Sequence record: ON548432.1
Source of the DNA: Escherichia phage vB_EcoS_SCS92
Length of the DNA: 44,240 nucleotides
Strand: one strand, 5' to 3'
The translations under genes and the position numbers were made by a program. The notes beneath the pieces were generated by a model. It saw only the letters and a list, made by a program, of their open reading frames with translations. It did no database searches and was not told where the DNA came from. Shown piece after piece: positions 17,200 to 25,452 of the stretch. Position 1 is the first letter of the stretch, and each line of letters starts with the position of its first letter.

Positions 17200-17370
17200 A
17201 TGACACAGAATGAAGTAGCTGAGCGTATCGGGGTTACCCGTCGTACGCTGAATAACTGGTTAAAGAGTGGGAAGTTCCCGGATTGTTGTATTCGCATTAT
17301 GGGCCGCAGGCAGCCTGGTACGTTTGACCCGGAGAAAGTGGAAGCGTGGATTAAGGAGAACGTGAAATGA
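17200..17370 (+). CDS. HTH DNA-binding protein (AlpA/excisionase-like family)
   Basis: MTQNEVAERIGVTRRTLNNWLKSGKFP is a typical HTH. GAGGG Shine-Dalgarno before ATG 17200; the track begins at a TTG at 17167. Confidence 0.6.
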   Translation: MTQNEVAERIGVTRRTLNNWLKSGKFPDCCIRIMGRRQPGTFDPEKVEAWIKENVK

Positions 17371-17600
17371 CAGAGTTTCAGTCACGCGTATTTACGGCAG
17401 TCGTTTCATTAACACGTAAAAAAGGGTCGTGCAGCGTTATCGACTTGCGCCGTAGTTATTTTAAGTACTATAGTTCCGCCATTATTGAAGGGTCGTTGAA
17501 GGTACTGGTTAAATCTGGTGTCGTGAAAAATGTTGGCGGGAAATATAGTGCTGTTGCCGAAGTTCGCGGAATGACCGCTACTTTAGAAGACCTGGAATAA
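17367..17600 (+). CDS. hypothetical protein with C-terminal LEDLE acidic motif
   Basis: 77 aa; ATGA overlap with the upstream gene; C-terminus ...TATLEDLE. Confidence 0.45.
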   Translation: MTEFQSRVFTAVVSLTRKKGSCSVIDLRRSYFKYYSSAIIEGSLKVLVKSGVVKNVGGKYSAVAEVRGMTATLEDLE

Positions 17601-17617
17601 AAGAAAGCCCCGACGCG

Positions 17618-19900
17618 GTGAACGCCGAGGCCAAATTACTTGCTGAAGGAATATACAACATGTCCGATGTAATTTTATCCTACTCGTGGTCACGCCGCAA
17701 CGCGCGGGCGGGGAAAAAGGATATAAATGTCAGAACCGCACACACGGCAACACTGGACGACCTGAAAGAGTTAATCCAGCCGCTCGATGCCGTTCGTGAC
17801 GGGATTAACCCCAAGACTGCGCCCGGTTATATCACGGCCGCGTGCGATTCTACACACAGCACCGTAAAAGACCCGGAAACCGGTGGCTTTAAACAAGCGC
17901 GTAAAGGCTTCTTCTATCGCTGTGACGCGTCTGTGAGCAAATCGTCGCTGGCGTATCTGGACTTCGACAGTGCAACACCGGAAGAGTACCAGGAAGCGGT
18001 GCGCCTGGTTAATCGCAGCCGCCGGGCGATGTGTCTCTACACCACGGCATCACATACCGATGAGGTCGCCCGCTTTCGCGTCGTCATGCCGCTGGCCCGC
18101 CCAGTTGAGGGTGGTGATATCATCCGTGTTCGTCATGGGTTGCTGGAGCACTTCTTCAAAGGCATGGGTGCGGACCGCAGCGGGTTCACTCTGTCGCAGC
18201 CGATGTACCTGCCGCCGGTCGGCGCTACCGTTATCTGGTCGCGCCGCAACGACCTGATCGACCCGAACGAGTTACTGGAAGGCATCCCAGCCGTTGACGT
18301 TAGCAGCGCATCGGATTACCAGATACCGGAAGAACTGCGCACCGCGTTTACAGACGCGTTTGAAGCACTGGCGTTTGAGTACGGCGGCGTCATGACGCCG
18401 CGCGGCCTTAAGATGCCAGCCACACCGGAACATGCCGAAAACTACAGCGACCCGACACCGCGCCCGGACGACTTCCTGCTGTGCTTCCCGCGCGAGGGGT
18501 ATGAAGCGCCAAACGTAACCATGATTCACGACACAGACATTACGGCGACAGAAGGCCTGTCACCGAAAGAGGTGTGGAAGTACGCGTGCGATGCGACCGG
18601 GCTGCCGTTCAGTGAAGTCGCAGAGGCCATCGGTTGGGGGGCGCGTGAATCTGTCTCATGCAGCCTCGACGACCTGGAAGACGACGAGGACTCAGAGGAG
18701 GACGAGTTACCGGAGCCGGTAAAGGCTGATTTCGTCGTTGAGGGGTACATGCCGTCGGATTGTATCTGGGGTATCGTCGGAGAATCGGGCACGTACAAAT
18801 CATTCTATACGCTGGGGATGATGTACCTGAGCGCCGCCGGATACCGGTTTGCAGGGGCTGACACCCAGCGTTGTCACCATTTCTATATCGACGGCGAGGG
18901 TGGGGCAGCCACACGTACACGTATTGATGCGCTCGCGGCTAAATACGGCGAGGAAGGTAAAGATTATGTACATGTCATCGATATGGGCGAAGTCGGCAAA
19001 CTTAAAAGCCTGATTAAGTTAATGCGCGAAACTGCTGGCGACGAGCCAATTGGCATGGTTGCGTTCGACACCCTTAACCAGACCCTGGCACTGACGATTG
19101 ATAAGTTCGACGAGAACAGTTCATCAACAGCAATCGGCATGGGTAAAGTTATCGCCATTCTGAAAGAAGTACGCGATGCAACTAAAGCCGCTGTCGGTGT
19201 CGTTCACCATACTCCGAAGGGCGGAAAGAAAGCCCGCGGCAGTGGGGCGCTGTATGCGGGTGTTGATGTGGAACTGACAATCGAACGTGCAACCGACCGT
19301 CAGATAAACGTATATCACTCGAAATTCAAGCACGGGCCTCAGCAGAAGACGGTTGGCATGGTGCTGGAGTCGGTACAGTTCCGTGAAGCGCCGCCGCCTA
19401 AAGAATACCGAGCGGTTGAGTTCCTGGGTAGCACAGAGGAATACGGCACAATCGTAAACCTGGACCTGCCTGAACCACACAAGGCGCTTGTGTTGATGCC
19501 GTGGGGTTTCGAGCCGTTCAAAACTGACGAGGAGAAAGAGCGGGAAGAAGGGTTGACGAAAGAAGGTAAGAAAAAAGTAAAGGAAGAAGTTAAACGCGGC
19601 AGGGATGAAGTAAGGAAGGAGTCAATACTTTCGGCACTGGAAGACCTGCAACAGTCAGATGACACAGGTCGCGGTTTTACTCAGCAGCAGATAGTGGCTC
19701 GTTCCGGTGACTTCTCTGTGACTAACACCCATCTTGATAAAATGTTGAAAGATGGAGAACTAATGCTTGGTTGCGATGCTAACGGCGAAGTAGTACCGAG
19801 AACATATCGTATACCCGAAAGAATAGGGGATAGATTAAGGCCGAAGACACTATACGAACCAAATGAGATGCTGGTGGTGACAGAGGAGGATTTGGAATAG
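17618..19900 (+). CDS. primase-helicase (RecA-fold ATPase with N-terminal primase-like domain)
   Basis: Walker A GIVGESGTYKS and Walker B-like VAFDTLNQ in the C-terminal half, large N-terminal domain, C-terminal TEEDLE. Likely ATG at 17660; the track starts at a GTG. Confidence 0.6.
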   Translation: MNAEAKLLAEGIYNMSDVILSYSWSRRNARAGKKDINVRTAHTATLDDLKELIQPLDAVRDGINPKTAPGYITAACDSTHSTVKDPETGGFKQARKGFFYRCDASVSKSSLAYLDFDSATPEEYQEAVRLVNRSRRAMCLYTTASHTDEVARFRVVMPLARPVEGGDIIRVRHGLLEHFFKGMGADRSGFTLSQPMYLPPVGATVIWSRRNDLIDPNELLEGIPAVDVSSASDYQIPEELRTAFTDAFEALAFEYGGVMTPRGLKMPATPEHAENYSDPTPRPDDFLLCFPREGYEAPNVTMIHDTDITATEGLSPKEVWKYACDATGLPFSEVAEAIGWGARESVSCSLDDLEDDEDSEEDELPEPVKADFVVEGYMPSDCIWGIVGESGTYKSFYTLGMMYLSAAGYRFAGADTQRCHHFYIDGEGGAATRTRIDALAAKYGEEGKDYVHVIDMGEVGKLKSLIKLMRETAGDEPIGMVAFDTLNQTLALTIDKFDENSSSTAIGMGKVIAILKEVRDATKAAVGVVHHTPKGGKKARGSGALYAGVDVELTIERATDRQINVYHSKFKHGPQQKTVGMVLESVQFREAPPPKEYRAVEFLGSTEEYGTIVNLDLPEPHKALVLMPWGFEPFKTDEEKEREEGLTKEGKKKVKEEVKRGRDEVRKESILSALEDLQQSDDTGRGFTQQQIVARSGDFSVTNTHLDKMLKDGELMLGCDANGEVVPRTYRIPERIGDRLRPKTLYEPNEMLVVTEEDLE

Positions 19901-19926
19901 GTAAAAAGAAAGGGGCTTTAAGCCCC
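19901..19926 (-). terminator. terminator hairpin between the convergent primase and HTH genes
   Basis: GGGGCT-tta-AGCCCC stem; the minus-strand RNA is followed by TTCTTTTTAC. The stem overlaps the HTH gene stop. Confidence 0.45.
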
Positions 19927-20133
19927 TTCACCTAACGCCAACCACTTGGCGTCTACTTCAAGCACTTCCGCCAGTTTAAACAGCGTCGCCGGGCGGACAT
20001 CCTGAGTTACCCCAAGTGCAAGCTGGTTAATCGCGCCCTGGGAGACACCGGCCAGGACAGCCAGACGGCGCTGGGAGATGCCGAGTTCTTTACGGCGTTG
20101 TTCTACACGAATGCCTAGTTCAGATGGTTGCAT
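19918..20133 (-). CDS. XRE-family (Cro/CI-type) HTH transcriptional regulator
   Basis: 71 aa. QRRKELGISQRRLAVLAGVSQGAINQLALG is a classic HTH_XRE motif. AAGGAG Shine-Dalgarno. Lone minus-strand gene with a divergent promoter region. Confidence 0.8.
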   Translation of the reverse strand: MQPSELGIRVEQRRKELGISQRRLAVLAGVSQGAINQLALGVTQDVRPATLFKLAEVLEVDAKWLALGEGA

Positions 20134-20164
20134 GTCAGCTACTCCTTAGTTAGTTGATATGTGA

Positions 20165-20193
20165 ATAGTACCATATTAATTATTTTAGAAAAG
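20165..20193 (-). promoter_or_regulatory. extended -10 promoter (TGnTACTAT) for the HTH regulator gene
   Basis: Minus-strand reading TGGTACTAT about 25 bp upstream of the AAGGAG Shine-Dalgarno; weak -35. Confidence 0.4.
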
Positions 20194-20197
20194 CCCA

Positions 20198-20226
20198 TTG
20201 ACATGTGAATAGTTCGCTATTATAGT
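20198..20226 (+). promoter_or_regulatory. near-consensus sigma70 promoter TTGACA-N17-TATAGT with AATAG-N4-CTATT palindrome in the spacer
   Basis: TTGACA at 20198-20203, TATAGT at 20221-20226, 32 bp upstream of the ATG at 20258. A weaker tandem copy (TTGATA ... TAATTA) lies at 20154-20182. Confidence 0.6.
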
Positions 20227-20257
20227 TAACCCATACCAAACGAGAGGTGAGAAACAA

Positions 20258-20758
20258 ATGTTAGAACAATTCTTAAAATTACTGGAACGTTTCGTAGTTG
20301 CACATGAACTGATTGCTGCGAACAGTGCGAAACAGTCAGCACAAGTTGCAGCGCCGTTAGAAGTAGAGACGGTAGTGTATACCAAAGAAGCGGTAGCTGA
20401 GTGCGAAAAAGAAGCAACAAAAGAAATCCCTGTTGAAGGTGAAGACATCGTTGACGCTAAACCAGCAGAAGAAGAGAAGCCGAAACGCAAGCCGCGTAAA
20501 GCTAAAGTAGAGGAGCCGACTCCAGAACCAGAAGAAGAGAAAGAAGAGGTCGATTACCAGTCTCTTCGTGACCAGATTCAGGCTATCGACGATGCAATTA
20601 ACGAAGGTCCGAGCGATGCCGCGTGCGACGATTCCGATGAACTGCTGGAGGAGTTCACCGGTAAGAAAATGAAGATTGCCGCGATTAAAGACGAAGACCT
20701 GGCTGAATACCTGAAACGCCTGACGGCGATTAAGAACAAGTATTTCGAAGAAGAATAA
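20258..20758 (+). CDS. highly acidic hypothetical protein (first gene of an early operon)
   Basis: 166 aa, Glu/Asp-rich with a short Lys-rich patch. GAGAGGTGAG Shine-Dalgarno. Followed by the hairpin GCGGCC-tccg-GGCCGC. Confidence 0.5.
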   Translation: MLEQFLKLLERFVVAHELIAANSAKQSAQVAAPLEVETVVYTKEAVAECEKEATKEIPVEGEDIVDAKPAEEEKPKRKPRKAKVEEPTPEPEEEKEEVDYQSLRDQIQAIDDAINEGPSDAACDDSDELLEEFTGKKMKIAAIKDEDLAEYLKRLTAIKNKYFEEE

Positions 20759-20801
20759 TTTATCTGGCGGCCTCCGGGCCGCTTTAACAGAGGGTCGTAA
20801 T

Positions 20802-21074
20802 ATGATTTACCAACTCTACCGAGGTATTGACCGACGGGATAACACAGAGGCGTTGTGGCTGTTGCGTGCGCCGTCCGGCGCGCACCAGATGGAAGAGATG
20901 GCCTACCTCGGCAAAGTACCGAAGCCGAAAGATATAGGCCGTCACCTGTCGCAGATTAAGCGCACGACATTCGTTAAAAGTGACTTTTATGTCTTCGAGT
21001 CGATGTATAGCTGGGCGATGCATTGTGACCACAAGACACGACATTTAATTGACCAGTGGGAGGTCAGGGTATGA
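20802..21074 (+). CDS. hypothetical protein
   Basis: 90-aa track ORF with a Shine-Dalgarno-like AGAGGG. Confidence 0.45.
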   Translation: MIYQLYRGIDRRDNTEALWLLRAPSGAHQMEEMAYLGKVPKPKDIGRHLSQIKRTTFVKSDFYVFESMYSWAMHCDHKTRHLIDQWEVRV

Positions 21075-22312
21075 TTCTAAAAGAACGAGGCGGCAATAAT
21101 GATGTACACGCCTTACTGTCACCGTCAGGCGCTAAAAAGTGGCTAGTCTGCGCTGCGTCGCTGGCGTGTGAAAAAGATATCCCTAACACGTCGGGTAAAG
21201 CCGCTGTATTAGGAACCGCCTGCCACACCATAGCTGAGGTCCATCTCAATGCCTATATACGCGGCACTGCGTTGCCGTTGGAGCGTGAAGTCGGCGCTTA
21301 CGTACTGGATGAAGGCAAAGGTCAGATTAAGGCGCTAATCAGCCCGATGAAAGGCGCGGTACTGATTACGGCGGACATGATTGAGCAGGTGCGCAAGTAC
21401 ACCGACTACTGCAAAGCGATTATAGACGTAGCGACTTACGCCAAGCTGGAAATGCGTGTTAATCTTACTGAGGTATTGCATCCGGGGTATGAAGGCGTTG
21501 AGACGTTCGGAACTGCTGACCTTGTTGCCATACAGGAACTGGCTAACACCGACGAACACATGCTTATCATCTGCGACCTGAAAACCGGGCGGCATCGTGT
21601 CGAAGCGAAAGAAAACAAGCAGCTTATGCTTTATGCTCTCGGCGTTTATCGCCGACTCAAGAGACGGTATAGCATAACAACCGTTCGACTGGTCATCTTC
21701 CAGCCGTACGCTGGCGGTGCATCGGAGTGGGACATCTCGGTTGAAGGTCTGGAACTGTTCGCTAAGTTTGCACAGAAACGGGCGCTGTTGGCTCTTGATG
21801 CCTATTTCCGGGGTAAAAAGAACCTGAAAGCGTCGGACTTCAAGCCGTCGGTAGATGGTTGTCAGTGGTGTCGGTTCTCTGAACAATGCGCAGCGCGTAC
21901 AAAAACCGTTAACGCGGGGCTGGCGGAAGAACTGGAGGACGACTTTGCACTTGAGCTTACGCCAGAGCAACTCGTAGCTGAGTATGAGAAGTTGCCGTTG
22001 TTGCGCCAGCACATCGACAAGGTTGAGAAAGCTATGGCTGCTACGTTACATTCCGGTAAGAAAGTGCCGGGTTACAACTTGGTTGAAGGACGCCCGGGTA
22101 ATCGTGCGTGGAAAGATACCGATGCAGTATCAGAAGTCTACGGTGACAAGCTGACAAAAGGAGTTCTTATGACACCGACCGAAGCTGTTAAAGTCGTACC
22201 GGAAGAAGAACTGAAAGACTTCATTACACGTAAGCCTGGGGCGCCATGCGTCGCAACGGCAGACGACAAACGTCCTGAGTGGAATCAGGTGACCGAGGAG
22301 GATTTAGAATGA
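21071..22312 (+). CDS. PD-(D/E)xK exonuclease with Cas4-like Cys cluster (DUF2800-like)
   Basis: D...ICDLKTG nuclease motif and C-terminal CQWCRFSEQC cysteine cluster. Likely ATG at 21071 with a GGAGG Shine-Dalgarno. C-terminus QVTEEDLE. Confidence 0.65.
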   Translation: MILKERGGNNDVHALLSPSGAKKWLVCAASLACEKDIPNTSGKAAVLGTACHTIAEVHLNAYIRGTALPLEREVGAYVLDEGKGQIKALISPMKGAVLITADMIEQVRKYTDYCKAIIDVATYAKLEMRVNLTEVLHPGYEGVETFGTADLVAIQELANTDEHMLIICDLKTGRHRVEAKENKQLMLYALGVYRRLKRRYSITTVRLVIFQPYAGGASEWDISVEGLELFAKFAQKRALLALDAYFRGKKNLKASDFKPSVDGCQWCRFSEQCAARTKTVNAGLAEELEDDFALELTPEQLVAEYEKLPLLRQHIDKVEKAMAATLHSGKKVPGYNLVEGRPGNRAWKDTDAVSEVYGDKLTKGVLMTPTEAVKVVPEEELKDFITRKPGAPCVATADDKRPEWNQVTEEDLE

Positions 22313-22512
22313 TTCAAGTAAATGAAATGCCCACAGATAAAGATTTTGTGATGATATGGCGCTGGGGCGGTTATATCCATTCGGAATCGTTTACGTTCCT
22401 GAACGGCACGATGGTGCGATACAACCATGTGGAGGATGAATTCGAACCCGTTGATATGAATGATTTCGAGAACATAGTCCGTATTGCGAAATTTTATTTG
22501 ACACCTGAATAG
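22309..22512 (+). CDS. hypothetical protein
   Basis: ATG at 22309 with an AGGAGG Shine-Dalgarno, overlapping the nuclease stop. Confidence 0.4.
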   Translation: MIQVNEMPTDKDFVMIWRWGGYIHSESFTFLNGTMVRYNHVEDEFEPVDMNDFENIVRIAKFYLTPE

Positions 22513-22526
22513 TTAGCTATTATAGT
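22498..22526 (+). promoter_or_regulatory. sigma70 promoter TTGACA-N17-TATAGT with AATAG-N4-CTATT palindrome
   Basis: TTGACAcctgaatagttagctatTATAGT, overlapping the stop of the upstream gene, 60 bp before the ATG at 22586. Confidence 0.55.
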
Positions 22527-22585
22527 TCTAATCACTGGCCGGGCAGCTTCCCGGAGTAAACGAAACTTAAAAGCGAGAAATTAAG

Positions 22586-23212
22586 ATGGGTATTAAACTG
22601 AATCTGCGTAAAGTAAACACTGCATGGGTTAACGTATTCGAACGTGCTGCCGACTCTGAGGACGAAAACCGGTCAATTATTAAGGGTAAATACAGCGTTA
22701 CGTTCATCATGCAGCCTGACCACCCTCAAATCGACGCGCTTTATGACACCGTTTACGCTGGAGTTGAACAAGCAATCGGTGCCGCCGCTGCCGAGAAATG
22801 GATGAAAGCCAACTACGGTGTAGACCACCACGCGGACAAGTGCGTGATACGTGACCTGGCAATGCGAGACAATCCTATTGAGGATTTTGAAGAAGGTCTG
22901 TATTTCCGGGCCACTACACCGTCACAGCCGGTGATTATGACATCGGCTAAAGGTGAAAAACAAACAGAGCCTGATTTCAACATCGACGGCGAACAGAATG
23001 AAGGCGAGCAGGTATATAGCGGATGTGTCGCAAACGTATCTGTAGAGTTATGGTGCAGCCAAAGATTGAAAAACCTGTGCGCTACCATCCTGGCGATCAA
23101 GTATATGGGTGAAGGTAAAGCGTTCGGCGGCTCCAGTGTAGTAGCGAGCACTGACGACCTGGAAGACGACGAAGAAGATGAAGCACCGCGTCGCGAACGT
23201 CGCCGCCGTTAA
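22586..23212 (+). CDS. ssDNA-binding protein (T7 gp2.5-like / DUF2815-like), putative
   Basis: N-terminal KLNLRKVNTAWVNVFE...KGKYSVTF pattern, acidic DDLEDDEEDE stretch near the C-terminus, and position between the nuclease and the polymerase. Confidence 0.5.
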   Translation: MGIKLNLRKVNTAWVNVFERAADSEDENRSIIKGKYSVTFIMQPDHPQIDALYDTVYAGVEQAIGAAAAEKWMKANYGVDHHADKCVIRDLAMRDNPIEDFEEGLYFRATTPSQPVIMTSAKGEKQTEPDFNIDGEQNEGEQVYSGCVANVSVELWCSQRLKNLCATILAIKYMGEGKAFGGSSVVASTDDLEDDEEDEAPRRERRRR

Positions 23213-23271: not shown

Positions 23272-25452
23272 ATGAGATACTTATACCTGGACTTTGAAAC
23301 ATTCTCCGAGGCCGATTTAAAGAAAGTCGGCTCCTACGCTTACGCTGAACACCCAACTACCGAAGTGCTTATCTGTACCTATGCTTTTGACGACGAGCCT
23401 GTGCAGGTATGGGATTGCACCGACGGCAGCGACATGCCAGGTGATTTGCACCGCGCACTGCGCCGTCTGGTGAAGCCGAACAGCCGCATCAAGATGGTAT
23501 GGCACAACGGTGGGCTTTTCGATAGGCTCATCATGAAGCATTGCTGGGGCTTTGATATTCCGGTAAGCAACACCATTGATACGATGATTTGGGCGTTTCG
23601 TCACGCGCTGCCGGGTTCTCTTGATGCGCTGTGCGAAGTGCTGGGCGTGTCTGCAGACAACGCGAAAGATAAACGCGGCAAGGCTCTGATTAAGCGTTTC
23701 TCTAAACCGACGCCGAAGAACTACAAAATCCGCCGCTACACCGCAGAAACTCACCCTGACGAGTGGGCGATGTTCATCAGGTACGCCGTGAGCGACATCA
23801 CTGCGATGCGTGAAGTCTTCCATAAGCTGCCGCGTTGGGGTAACTCCGAGTTCGAAGACCGTGTACTGGAACTTGACCAGTTAATCAACGACCGTGGGTT
23901 TAAGGTTGATGTGACGCTGGCGGAAGCCGCGATTGAAGCCGTGGAAAAACACAAGGCCAAGCTACAGGAAGAAGCACAGCGCAAATACGGCGGCTCGCTT
24001 ACTGGTAAAGACTTCCTGCCGATTCTGCGTGAACTGGCCCCCGCACACCGCATACACAACGCACAGAAGTCGACGCTGAATGACCTGCTGGCCGATGATG
24101 ATTTACCTGACGACGCCCGCACGATTATCGAAATGCGCCTCGGGGCCGCGTCAACAGCGTCCACGAAATATAACCCGCTGCTGTTAGGCCGCTCGTCGGA
24201 CGACCGACGCCGCGGTTGTATCCAGTACGGTGGGGCAAAGCGTACGTTACGGTTCGCGGGTAAAGGCTTCCAGCCACAGAACCTGGCGCGCGGGTACTAT
24301 CACGATGATGAACTGGATAAAGGTATTTCAGCGTTACTTAAAGGCCGCGCGCATCGCCGTTTCGATGTAGCCAAGCTAACGGCATCGACGGTGCGTAGCT
24401 GCATCATACCGGAAGCCGGGCGTAAGTTTGTCGTAGCTGATTACTCTAACGTTGAAGGTCGCGGGTTGGCATGGCTGGCGGGAGAAGAAACCGCTCTCGA
24501 TACCTTCCGTGCGGGATTGGATATTTACTGTGTAACCGCGGGTAAGATGTTCGGCATGGACCCTGATTACATTCTGAAAGCACGTAGTGACCTACGCCAG
24601 ATAGGTAAAGCATGTGAATTGGGCCTTGGCTATGCTGGTGGTGTCGGTGCTTTCGTTCAGTTTGCTAAGAACCTCGGACTTAACCTGGTTGATATGGCAA
24701 AAACAATGGACGGGACATTCCCCGACCATATATGGGCCGCTACTGCACGCGGCTATGAATGGGCACGTATTCAGGAAGCCAAGCGACCTCCGCGGCCAGG
24801 TGAAAAGGATGACCGACCATCGTATATTCTTGATAAGAAAGTGTGGCGTACCTGTGACGCTATCAAGCGCATGTGGCGCGAGTCCCACCCGGAAACAGTA
24901 GCGTTCTGGCGGGATATTGAAGACGCCGCTATGGCAGCTATCCGCAATCCAGGTAAAGAGTTCACTGCGGGACCGCGGGGTGTTAAGTTTTCGCGTAACG
25001 TAGAAACGGACAACAACGGCAACAAAGTCGCTGGTTGGTGGTTGCGCATGACGTTGCCGTCGGGTCGCGTTATGTCTTATCCGGGGGTCGGGTTGAGCGT
25101 GTCGAAAGAAACAGATGGAGACGGGAAGGTGTCTACTAACGTGCGCATTAAGTACCAGGGCGAAAATCAGCTAACCCGTCAGTGGGGGTTCCAGTACACC
25201 TACTCGGGTAAACTGGTGGAAAACTGCACTCAGGCATTGTGCCGTGATTTGCTGGCTAATGCCCTGCTGAACGTAGAAGCAAACGGCTACCCGATTGTAC
25301 TTCACGTACACGATGAGATTATCTGCGAGACACCAGATTCACCGGAATACAATGTAGCAGAGCTTGAGCGGTTGATGTGCGAATTGCCGGAATGGGCGGA
25401 GGGGTTCCCTCTTGTAGCTGAAGGTGCGGAGATGAAGCGATATGCCAAGTAA
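23272..25452 (+). CDS. DNA polymerase, family A (with 3'-5' exonuclease domain)
   Basis: Exo I YLDFETFS, pol motif A VVADYSNVEGR, motif B RQIGKACELGLGYAGG, motif C VLHVHDEIICE. Confidence 0.9.
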   Translation: MRYLYLDFETFSEADLKKVGSYAYAEHPTTEVLICTYAFDDEPVQVWDCTDGSDMPGDLHRALRRLVKPNSRIKMVWHNGGLFDRLIMKHCWGFDIPVSNTIDTMIWAFRHALPGSLDALCEVLGVSADNAKDKRGKALIKRFSKPTPKNYKIRRYTAETHPDEWAMFIRYAVSDITAMREVFHKLPRWGNSEFEDRVLELDQLINDRGFKVDVTLAEAAIEAVEKHKAKLQEEAQRKYGGSLTGKDFLPILRELAPAHRIHNAQKSTLNDLLADDDLPDDARTIIEMRLGAASTASTKYNPLLLGRSSDDRRRGCIQYGGAKRTLRFAGKGFQPQNLARGYYHDDELDKGISALLKGRAHRRFDVAKLTASTVRSCIIPEAGRKFVVADYSNVEGRGLAWLAGEETALDTFRAGLDIYCVTAGKMFGMDPDYILKARSDLRQIGKACELGLGYAGGVGAFVQFAKNLGLNLVDMAKTMDGTFPDHIWAATARGYEWARIQEAKRPPRPGEKDDRPSYILDKKVWRTCDAIKRMWRESHPETVAFWRDIEDAAMAAIRNPGKEFTAGPRGVKFSRNVETDNNGNKVAGWWLRMTLPSGRVMSYPGVGLSVSKETDGDGKVSTNVRIKYQGENQLTRQWGFQYTYSGKLVENCTQALCRDLLANALLNVEANGYPIVLHVHDEIICETPDSPEYNVAELERLMCELPEWAEGFPLVAEGAEMKRYAK

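Follow-up and report, generated by a model that had tools for sequence, protein, structure and literature searches.

A short acidic peptide motif on four replication-module proteins of a Kagunavirus and its probable role as a common docking element

Why would four proteins of a phage replication module carry copies of one short acidic peptide? The question is raised by the genome of Escherichia phage vB_EcoS_SCS92 (sequence record ON548432.1), analysed here over its full 44,240 bp (the window), which represents a complete Kagunavirus genome (Guernseyvirinae). The motif carriers are the small protein gp41, the primase-helicase, which has one copy in its linker and another at its C-terminus, the DUF2800 nuclease and the DUF2815 SSB (single-stranded DNA-binding protein); no other copy is found in the window. 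An initial annotation had recognized the element as a "DLE" motif and likened it to the acidic tails of the phage T7 replisome. The motif is real and non-random, although its pattern is better given as [S/T]-x-[D/E]-D-L-E. Selection has acted on it as a protein sequence, its copies sit in disordered regions, and across lineages it changes together in the SSB and its partners. Judged by these properties and by analogy with T7, the five copies probably constitute one docking motif through which their carriers reach a common acceptor site.

All five copies are encoded on the plus strand. The 77-amino-acid (aa) winged-helix protein gp41 (17367-17600) has the C-terminus ..GMTATLEDLE, with T-L-E-D-L-E at nucleotides (nt) 17580-17597. 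The primase-helicase, assigned by phrog_3228 and Pfam, extends from an ATG at 17660 (or a GTG at 17618) to 19900, and its helicase domain (AAA_25) spans aa 351-522. Its first copy lies in the linker between the primase and helicase parts (18662-18706, SLDDLEDDEDSEEDE; aa 335-349, ..CSLDDLEDDEDSEEDE..) and its second, T-E-E-D-L-E at 19880-19897, in the C-terminus ..VVTEEDLE. The DUF2800 nuclease (21071-22312; PF10926 at 1e-66, PF12705), a Cys-rich, Cas4-like exonuclease of the PD-(D/E)XK type, ends with the same six residues (22292-22309, ..QVTEEDLE). The SSB (22586-23212; PF10991 at 3e-13, phrog_112) is a binding and annealing protein for single-stranded DNA (ssDNA), of the T7 gp2.5 type (DUF2815/Enc34-type). 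Its motif, STDDLEDDEEDE at 23147-23182, immediately follows the OB fold and is itself followed by APRRERRRR, a block of nine mostly basic residues (23183-23209), so that the C-terminal sequence reads ..ASTDDLEDDEEDEAPRRERRRR. The motif-bearing peptides of the window proteins are NEMLVVTEEDLE, WNQVTEEDLE, GMTATLEDLE and VVASTDDLEDDEE. The TEEDLE ends first reported for the primase-helicase and the nuclease, and the LEDLE end reported for the 77-aa protein (..MTATLEDLE), are borne out by these sequences. The acidic SSB tail does hold the motif but not as its C-terminus, since the basic block comes after it.

Chance is ruled out by shuffling as the origin of this shared motif. Across the six reading frames of the 44-kb window the pattern [ST].[DE]DLE has five matches, which are exactly the five copies, against a mean of 0.07 and a maximum of 2 in 5000 within-protein shuffles of the 72-protein proteome. 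Three proteins end in [DE]DLE, whereas the shuffled proteomes average 0.004 such proteins and never have more than 1. The proteome holds eight DLE tripeptides in all, five of them inside the four motif proteins.

The docking idea was originally staked on conservation of the motif in related phages, and the motif is indeed kept in the primase-helicase, nuclease and SSB of Jersey-, Cornell- and Dhillonvirus, even where protein identity has fallen to 45-50%. In a four-genus alignment of primase-helicases with 29-66% overall identity to the window protein, D338 and L339 of the linker and D744 and L745 of the C-terminus are invariant; Kaguna-, Jersey-, Cornell- and Dhillonvirus retain the linker signature C-x2-[DE]-D-L, and the C-termini of homologues read TTEGDLE, SEEDDLEN, ATDDDLKD, ASDEDLNS and AEDDDLAD. 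Close homologues of the nuclease end in ..EEDLE in 116 of 120 cases and distant ones in ATDSDLDD, ATDEDLSNE or VSDEDLS, the first two being the Cornellvirus and Dhillonvirus ends. D191 and L192 of the SSB are at least 90% conserved among 24 SSBs of the clade. The gp41 tail, ..AT[LP]EDLE, is present in 29 of 31 close homologues and also in Jerseyvirus, the only genus besides Kagunavirus in which a profile search of 1.84 billion representatives recovered homologues of this protein. When 2540 six-frame open reading frames (ORFs) from 17 loci of the clade were screened for tails of the form [DE][DESGA]DL followed by 0-3 residues, matches came only from the primase-helicase, the nuclease and a 62-aa ORF of two loci, L016 (12421-12609) and L017 (12394-12582). 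This ORF, placed between the SSB and polymerase genes, ends in ..AMTATDEDLE; its tail is nearly that of gp41 while the rest of the protein is dissimilar, so that the tail appears to have been gained independently by another small protein.

The same comparisons bear on a DNA-level origin, in which the peptide would be a by-product of an embedded ribosome-binding or translational-coupling sequence or of recent gene conversion between short repeats. Some identities between copies do speak for it. The linker and SSB copies share a 20-nt coding stretch, GACGACCTGGAAGACGACGA, already noticed in the initial annotation and exactly identical at 18668-18687 and 23153-23172, and the DNA of the two TEEDLE tails agrees at 21 of 23 nt (primase-helicase 19876-19898, nuclease 22288-22310). 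The nuclease tail DNA, GAGGAGGATTTAGAATGA, also contains a Shine-Dalgarno sequence, GAGGAGGA, 6 nt before the gp47 ATG, which overlaps the nuclease stop codon as ATGA; coupling signals may have shaped codon choice, in this tail only. The primase-helicase tail, however, is followed by a terminator-like hairpin and then by a convergent gene, which leaves no gene downstream to be coupled to it. The primase-helicase of Cornellvirus and Dhillonvirus lies on the opposite strand among other neighbours, yet it ends in ..SEEDDLEN and ..ATDDDLKD. Over 15 loci the peptide is kept with differing codons: TTA, TTG, CTG and CTC all serve for Leu, GAT and GAC for Asp, and TCA and AGC for Ser. The 20-nt identity is lost in relatives, which use other codons, and is given no weight in the functional argument for that reason. 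A DNA repeat or gene conversion was accordingly rejected, its identity being real yet absent from relatives, as was Shine-Dalgarno-driven coupling as the main cause, because the primase-helicase tail has no coupled gene and the peptide survives other codons, strands and neighbours. Since codons, strand and gene order change while the motif stays, selection, as read from these alignments, is on the peptide and not on a ribosome-binding site or DNA repeat, and a DNA-level origin is very improbable.

Selection on a peptide raises the question of its partner, on which the wider family of phages with this gene module is informative. The gene order of DUF2800 nuclease, DUF2815 SSB and family A polymerase, which in the window adjoin as PF10926, PF10991 and PF00476 (21071-25452), also occurs in 80 related loci. 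Named phages and 80 IMG/VR loci around DUF2800 homologues were sampled, with nuclease diversity obtained by tblastn; ORF families were assigned by blastp with seed proteins and their C-termini tabulated. Across about 35 lineages that have the duf2800-gp2.5-polA module, the motif directly behind the SSB OB fold recurs at the C-terminus of the nuclease. SSB and partners change their hydrophobic anchor in step: most lineages have F, Guernseyvirinae and Dhillonvirus have L, and Chi-like phages have W. Cornellvirus, for instance, has ..EVATDSDLDDDD.. (ATDSDLDDDD) in its SSB and ..PATDSDLDD at the end of its nuclease. In the Chi-like phage iEPS5 an SSB ending in ..SDAWDEDEDWEDEV (also given as ..TSDAWDEDEDWEDEV) accompanies a nuclease ending in ..SGAWDDEDDDEV, a primase ending in ..PFDDEDEV and an SNF2 helicase ending in ..VWDDEE, with similar tails on two small proteins. 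Further SSB and nuclease pairs are ..SAAEDDFDEL.. and ..SAEDDFDKL in Staphylococcus phi2958PVL, ..SAKEDFADL.. and ..AADDFADDLEN in Listeria LWP01, ..SAEADFGG.. and ..SAADDFGTK in Corynebacterium IME1320_01, and ..SAAQAFG.. and ..SAAEAFKEEN in Bacteroides-type phages. The metagenomic loci add ..DDFDDLSVEDEGDLV with ..DDFEDLGAEDLV (L024), ..SADDFDSYEDEE.. with ..SADDFDDVSEED (L044) and, in L076, ..DDL at the end of SSB, nuclease and primase-helicase alike.

To quantify the pairing, the 12 C-terminal residues of the nuclease were compared with the 30 C-terminal residues of the SSB, and the highest-scoring segment without gaps was taken under BLOSUM62. For 22 lineages below 50% nuclease identity, cognate pairs scored 22.0 on average, against 16.96 +/- 0.96 for permuted pairs, and none of 5000 permutations reached the cognate value; with nine lineages below 40% identity 3 of 5000 did so, and kinship among the lineages inflates the significance in both cases, so that the probabilities are inexact. 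When the nuclease tail was matched against the whole cognate SSB, 13 of 22 lineages had the best segment within the last 40 residues (binomial p = 6e-5), and about 16 of 22 had it at the post-OB motif. Primase-helicase and nuclease tails also resemble each other more than permuted pairs do (19/5000 permutations). As controls, the tails of polymerase, VRR-NUC and SNF2 proteins were indistinguishable from permuted pairs when compared with SSB tails, and neither the polymerase nor VRR-NUC has an acidic motif tail in any of the tabulated lineages. The co-variation is evidence that mimicry of the SSB tail by the nuclease is ancestral to a very large group of phages, to judge from the tails sampled; the primase-helicase tail is clade-specific.

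Could such tails simply be generic, each an independent, DNA-mimicking acidic extension that folds onto the basic surface of its own protein for auto-inhibition or ssDNA selectivity, with a likeness of composition only? All four carriers have DNA as ligand or substrate, every lineage shows a strongly acidic composition, and the Enc34 SSB gains double-stranded DNA binding when its tail is removed (PMC5686142). Composition would not account, however, for the conserved non-acidic positions, S/T at -3 and the hydrophobic anchor, for the joint switching of F, L and W in SSB and partners, or for the identical 8-mer of the Cornellvirus SSB and nuclease. The Bacteroides-type SAAQAF and SAAEAF match though barely acidic, and permuted SSB-nuclease pairs, equal in composition, score significantly lower. 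Independent generic tails are on these grounds unlikely.

The motif might instead recruit or decoy a host factor, such as a reader of SSB tails, a processivity factor, a protease or a defence sensor of phage SSB. Among the metagenomic phages of the module, one IMG/VR lineage (L064, L046 and L070) has primase-helicases ending in ..GFDDIPF, ..DFDQAPF and ..FLDPPF; these resemble the tip of bacterial SSB, which suggests mimicry of the host SSB tail in place of the phage SSB motif. Host thioredoxin on the T7 polymerase sits next to the tail-binding patch (PMC12593628), and Retron-Eco8 is reported to sense phage SSB. The window motif, however, is unlike the E. coli SSB tip (DDDIPF) or the clamp-binding motif (QL[SD]LF), and the anchor differs among phages that share enteric hosts, being L in Kaguna-, Jersey- and Dhillonvirus but W in the Chi-like group, so the motif tracks the phage's own SSB and not the host. 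A host target is therefore rated as quite unlikely, a little more so than generic tails.

A common docking motif shared among the phage's own proteins is the explanation that we prefer, and structure predictions agree with it in placing the motif outside folded domains. The AF2 model of the SSB has a folded domain of about aa 1-181 and a tail, residues 182-208, with pLDDT below 50 and a one-turn helix on T-D-D-L; in Foldseek the model matches 4KLK, Enc34 ORF6 (5ODL/5ODJ), 4JG2 and T7 gp2.5 (1JE5). For gp41, AF2 gives a pLDDT of 87.7 and an H-H-H-beta-beta topology, with lower values of about 60-69 for tail residues 67-77. Foldseek relates gp41 to winged-helix domains at TM 0.6-0.7 (the LexA DNA-binding domain, the MotA N-terminal domain and RPA32C), and its fold is modelled as a generic winged helix. 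The location in disordered segments fits a short linear interaction motif.

In the proposed mechanism, the motif would comprise an acidic stretch and a single hydrophobic anchor within such a segment. The post-OB copy of the SSB would be the prototype, of which the primase-helicase (in both its copies), the DUF2800 exonuclease and gp41 carry versions, and all of these carriers, as well as the SSB itself, would be able to occupy one acceptor site. Sharing of this site might couple unwinding and priming to DNA synthesis, to 5' resection or removal of primers, and to the coating of ssDNA within a single replisome or recombination machine. From the sequences and the T7 precedent we infer that the motif mediates binding, to a partner that is likewise putative. 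Two acceptors are candidates and need not exclude each other. The T7 precedent points to a basic patch of the family A polymerase, and crystals of the same SSB family point to the basic ssDNA-binding cleft of the SSB. The principle of T7 gp4, gp2.5 and gp5 would in this way also take in a nuclease and a small protein that binds DNA, with Leu replacing the aromatic anchor.

The polymerase (23272-25452, plus strand; Pfam DNA_pol_A, PF00476, with an exonuclease domain) is thus a candidate tail acceptor. Its segment RGVKFSR (nt 24976-24996) stands opposite the front basic patch of T7 gp5, KWKRR (K587-R591), in a weak alignment of about 20% identity, and is partly basic in relatives. The same alignment reveals no recognizable thioredoxin-binding domain in the window polymerase. 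Separately, an insertion of about 45-70 residues follows motif B (24646-24864, aa 459-531; ..FVQFAKNLGL...AKRPPRPGEKDDRPSY..). It is found in Kaguna-, Cornell- and Dhillonvirus and is missing from the polymerases of Chi-like, Staphylococcus, Streptococcus, Listeria and Croceibacter phages and of T7. Because the same clade uses the Leu anchor, the insertion is a possible clade-specific docking surface. In Jerseyvirus jersey (L002, 11367-14465) the polymerase ORF has 1032 aa, compared with 726 aa in the window, with the same termini, which suggests an intein or other in-frame insertion.

Several observations weigh against the docking proposal or narrow it. The correspondence of the polymerase basic patch leans on that alignment of about 20% identity, and the full-length AF2 model of the SSB shows no confident pose of the tail, at pLDDT below 50, on its own fold. 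The SSB motif is internal and precedes a basic block, unlike the terminal Phe of T7. Module-wide, the resemblance of primase-helicase tails to SSB tails is not significant by permutation. Beyond the kinship of the lineages already mentioned, the derived anchors L and W amount to only about two independent switches, and the nucleases of Vibrio 489E54-1 and Liberibacter GZQL4 have no acidic tail.

A broader version of the docking scheme, which we would offer only tentatively and consider rather unlikely in this form, makes the SSB a hub throughout the module. The nuclease, joined in some clades by the primase-helicase, the SNF2 helicase and small DNA-binding proteins, would insert its mimic of the SSB tail into the cleft of the SSB/annealase, and the exchange of tail for DNA would load, unload or hand over SSB on ssDNA, going beyond tethering to the polymerase. 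Such a system, not recognized before, would span the very widespread duf2800-gp2.5-polA phages of Proteobacteria, Firmicutes, Bacteroidota and Actinobacteria.

The surroundings of these genes present further features. The SSBs of the clade have an Arg/Lys-rich end in place of an acidic tip, which is unusual among SSB tails; in Cornellvirus and Dhillonvirus (L003 10830-11525; L004 10721-11521) the tail alternates repeatedly between acidic and basic stretches, as in DDDDEDD-KPRKSKKSKRR..., and is a polyampholyte. The rightward replication module opens with gp40, a helix-turn-helix protein, and continues with gp41, the primase-helicase, a convergent XRE-type regulator (19918-20133, minus strand), gp44, gp45, the nuclease, gp47, the SSB and the polymerase. 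A GC-rich hairpin with an 11-bp stem (17606-17632) lies within the 59 nt that separate the gp41 stop from the primase-helicase ATG; its score is terminator-like on the minus strand only. The product of gp44 (20258-20758, phrog_3127) is a strongly acidic protein of 166 aa ending in ..YFEEE. Because the small Chi-like protein in the same slot upstream of the nuclease has C-termini in the local dialect (..NSEEDDV, ..DDDEEI), gp44 may be a further candidate for the tail-bearing set. Two near-identical strong promoters of the sigma-70 type, with TTGACA and TATAGT separated by 17 nt (11 of 12 matches), lie on the plus strand at 20198-20226, upstream of the gp44-nuclease operon, and at 22498-22526, upstream of the SSB and polymerase genes. 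Their spacers hold the palindrome TGAATAGTT[C/A]GCTATTATAGTT (AATAG/CTATT), a possible operator of the adjacent XRE-type regulator.

Escherichia phage NTEC3 (NC_073318, 44,240 bp) is base-for-base collinear with the window, with identical length and gene coordinates. The two differ by 1461 substitutions, clustered in patches, and by no insertions or deletions; 58 of 208 aa are changed in the SSB, and gp40, gp41, gp45 and gp47 are unchanged. This patchiness looks like patchwise homologous exchange among collinear Kagunaviruses.

If the docking proposal is true, it provides a testable wiring diagram for replication and recombination in Guernseyvirinae and Dhillonvirus, common phages of E. coli and Salmonella of which many were isolated against pathogenic strains. 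It would extend to thousands of phages and prophages with duf2800-gp2.5-polA, including those of Staphylococcus, Streptococcus, Listeria and Bacteroides, and would explain how a Cas4-like nuclease is coupled to a gp2.5-type SSB/annealase. It would also predict gp41 and the 62-aa ORF of L016 and L017 to be replisome members, and would make short peptides available as specific competitive inhibitors or probes. The acidic-tail principle of T7 would then be ancestral to a far larger group, as a co-evolving peptide code with an F, L or W anchor. Earlier publications already cover that principle, the assignment of DUF2815 SSBs to the gp2.5 type and the duf2800-gp2.5-polA gene module (PMC5686142; PMC8093625). 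What appears new relative to T7 are the carriers (nuclease, winged-helix protein and linker copy), the Leu anchor and the internal SSB copy with its basic block; our literature search turned up the module and the Enc34 SSB structure, but no account of a tail motif that the DUF2800 nuclease or the other carriers have in common.

Several known systems offer points of comparison. In lambda Exo-Red-beta and RecE-RecT, as here, the gene of a nuclease of the 5'-3' type adjoins that of an ssDNA-annealing or -binding protein and a specific pairing is expected; the folds differ, however, being Cas4-like PD-(D/E)XK and gp2.5-type OB in the window, and the contact proposed here is a mimic of the SSB tail and not a folded C-terminal domain. 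The C-terminal tip of bacterial SSB (DDDIPF) is read by many partners, and clamp-binding or PIP-box motifs are common to polymerases, FEN1 and ligase. In those hubs too, one short, often C-terminal peptide is reused by several enzymes of DNA metabolism. The sequences and the hub are different, and the partners in the window carry the SSB-like peptide where those of bacterial SSB read it. The window SSB is of the gp2.5 type with a basic end, and an IPF tip is present on none of the four proteins. Likewise, the motif [ST]x[DE]DLE is neither QL[SD]LF nor Qxx[LIM]xx[FY][FY], and neither the annotation nor the ORF list of the window shows a clamp gene, though no scan aimed at clamps was made.

Closer relatives are found within the module itself. 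The window shares its trio of genes and their order with the duf2800-gp2.5-polA module of Steczkiewicz et al. 2021 (PMC8093625), whose published description concerns gene context only. Enc34 ORF6 and other DUF2815 structures have the same Pfam family, fold and disordered acidic tail as the window SSB. Crystals of Enc34 ORF6, 4JG2, 4KLK and gp2.5 show the tail of one SSB molecule resting in its neighbour's concave groove (PMC5686142). We infer from sequence that the last ordered residues of 5ODJ, about ..TSDAYD, are homologous to STDDLE. In Enc34 and Chi-like phages, by contrast, the anchor is Y or W and the tail end is acidic (..DEV); the Enc34 paper does not mention that nuclease, primase or SNF2 helicase have tails to match (PMC5686142).

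The T7 replisome is the most instructive parallel. There, basic patches of gp5, near its thioredoxin-binding domain and at its front, receive the acidic tails of gp4 and gp2.5, and processivity falls when gp4 loses its tail (PMC12593628, PMC12339929). The two tails have common motifs, gp2.5 ending in ..ESWDEDDEESEEADEDGDF (..ESWDEDDE..DGDF) and gp4 in ..STDWSNDTDF, and the gp6 exonuclease has no such tail. The analogy first drawn with T7 holds up well in that the window SSB is structurally homologous to gp2.5, and the gp2.5 and gp4 tails share motifs in the same manner. The docking idea is further supported by the co-variation of nuclease and SSB tails across many lineages. Both systems combine a gp2.5-fold SSB bearing a disordered acidic tail, a family A polymerase and a fused primase-helicase, and in both the helicase tail resembles the SSB tail, with an acidic stretch and one hydrophobic anchor. 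They differ in the anchor, which in the window is Leu followed by a terminal Glu and in T7 a C-terminal Phe on both tails. The window tails end in D-L-E and the SSB motif is internal, with an Arg-rich end (..RRERRRR) after it. The window also has carriers additional to those of T7, namely the Cas4-like exonuclease, the winged-helix protein and the linker copy.

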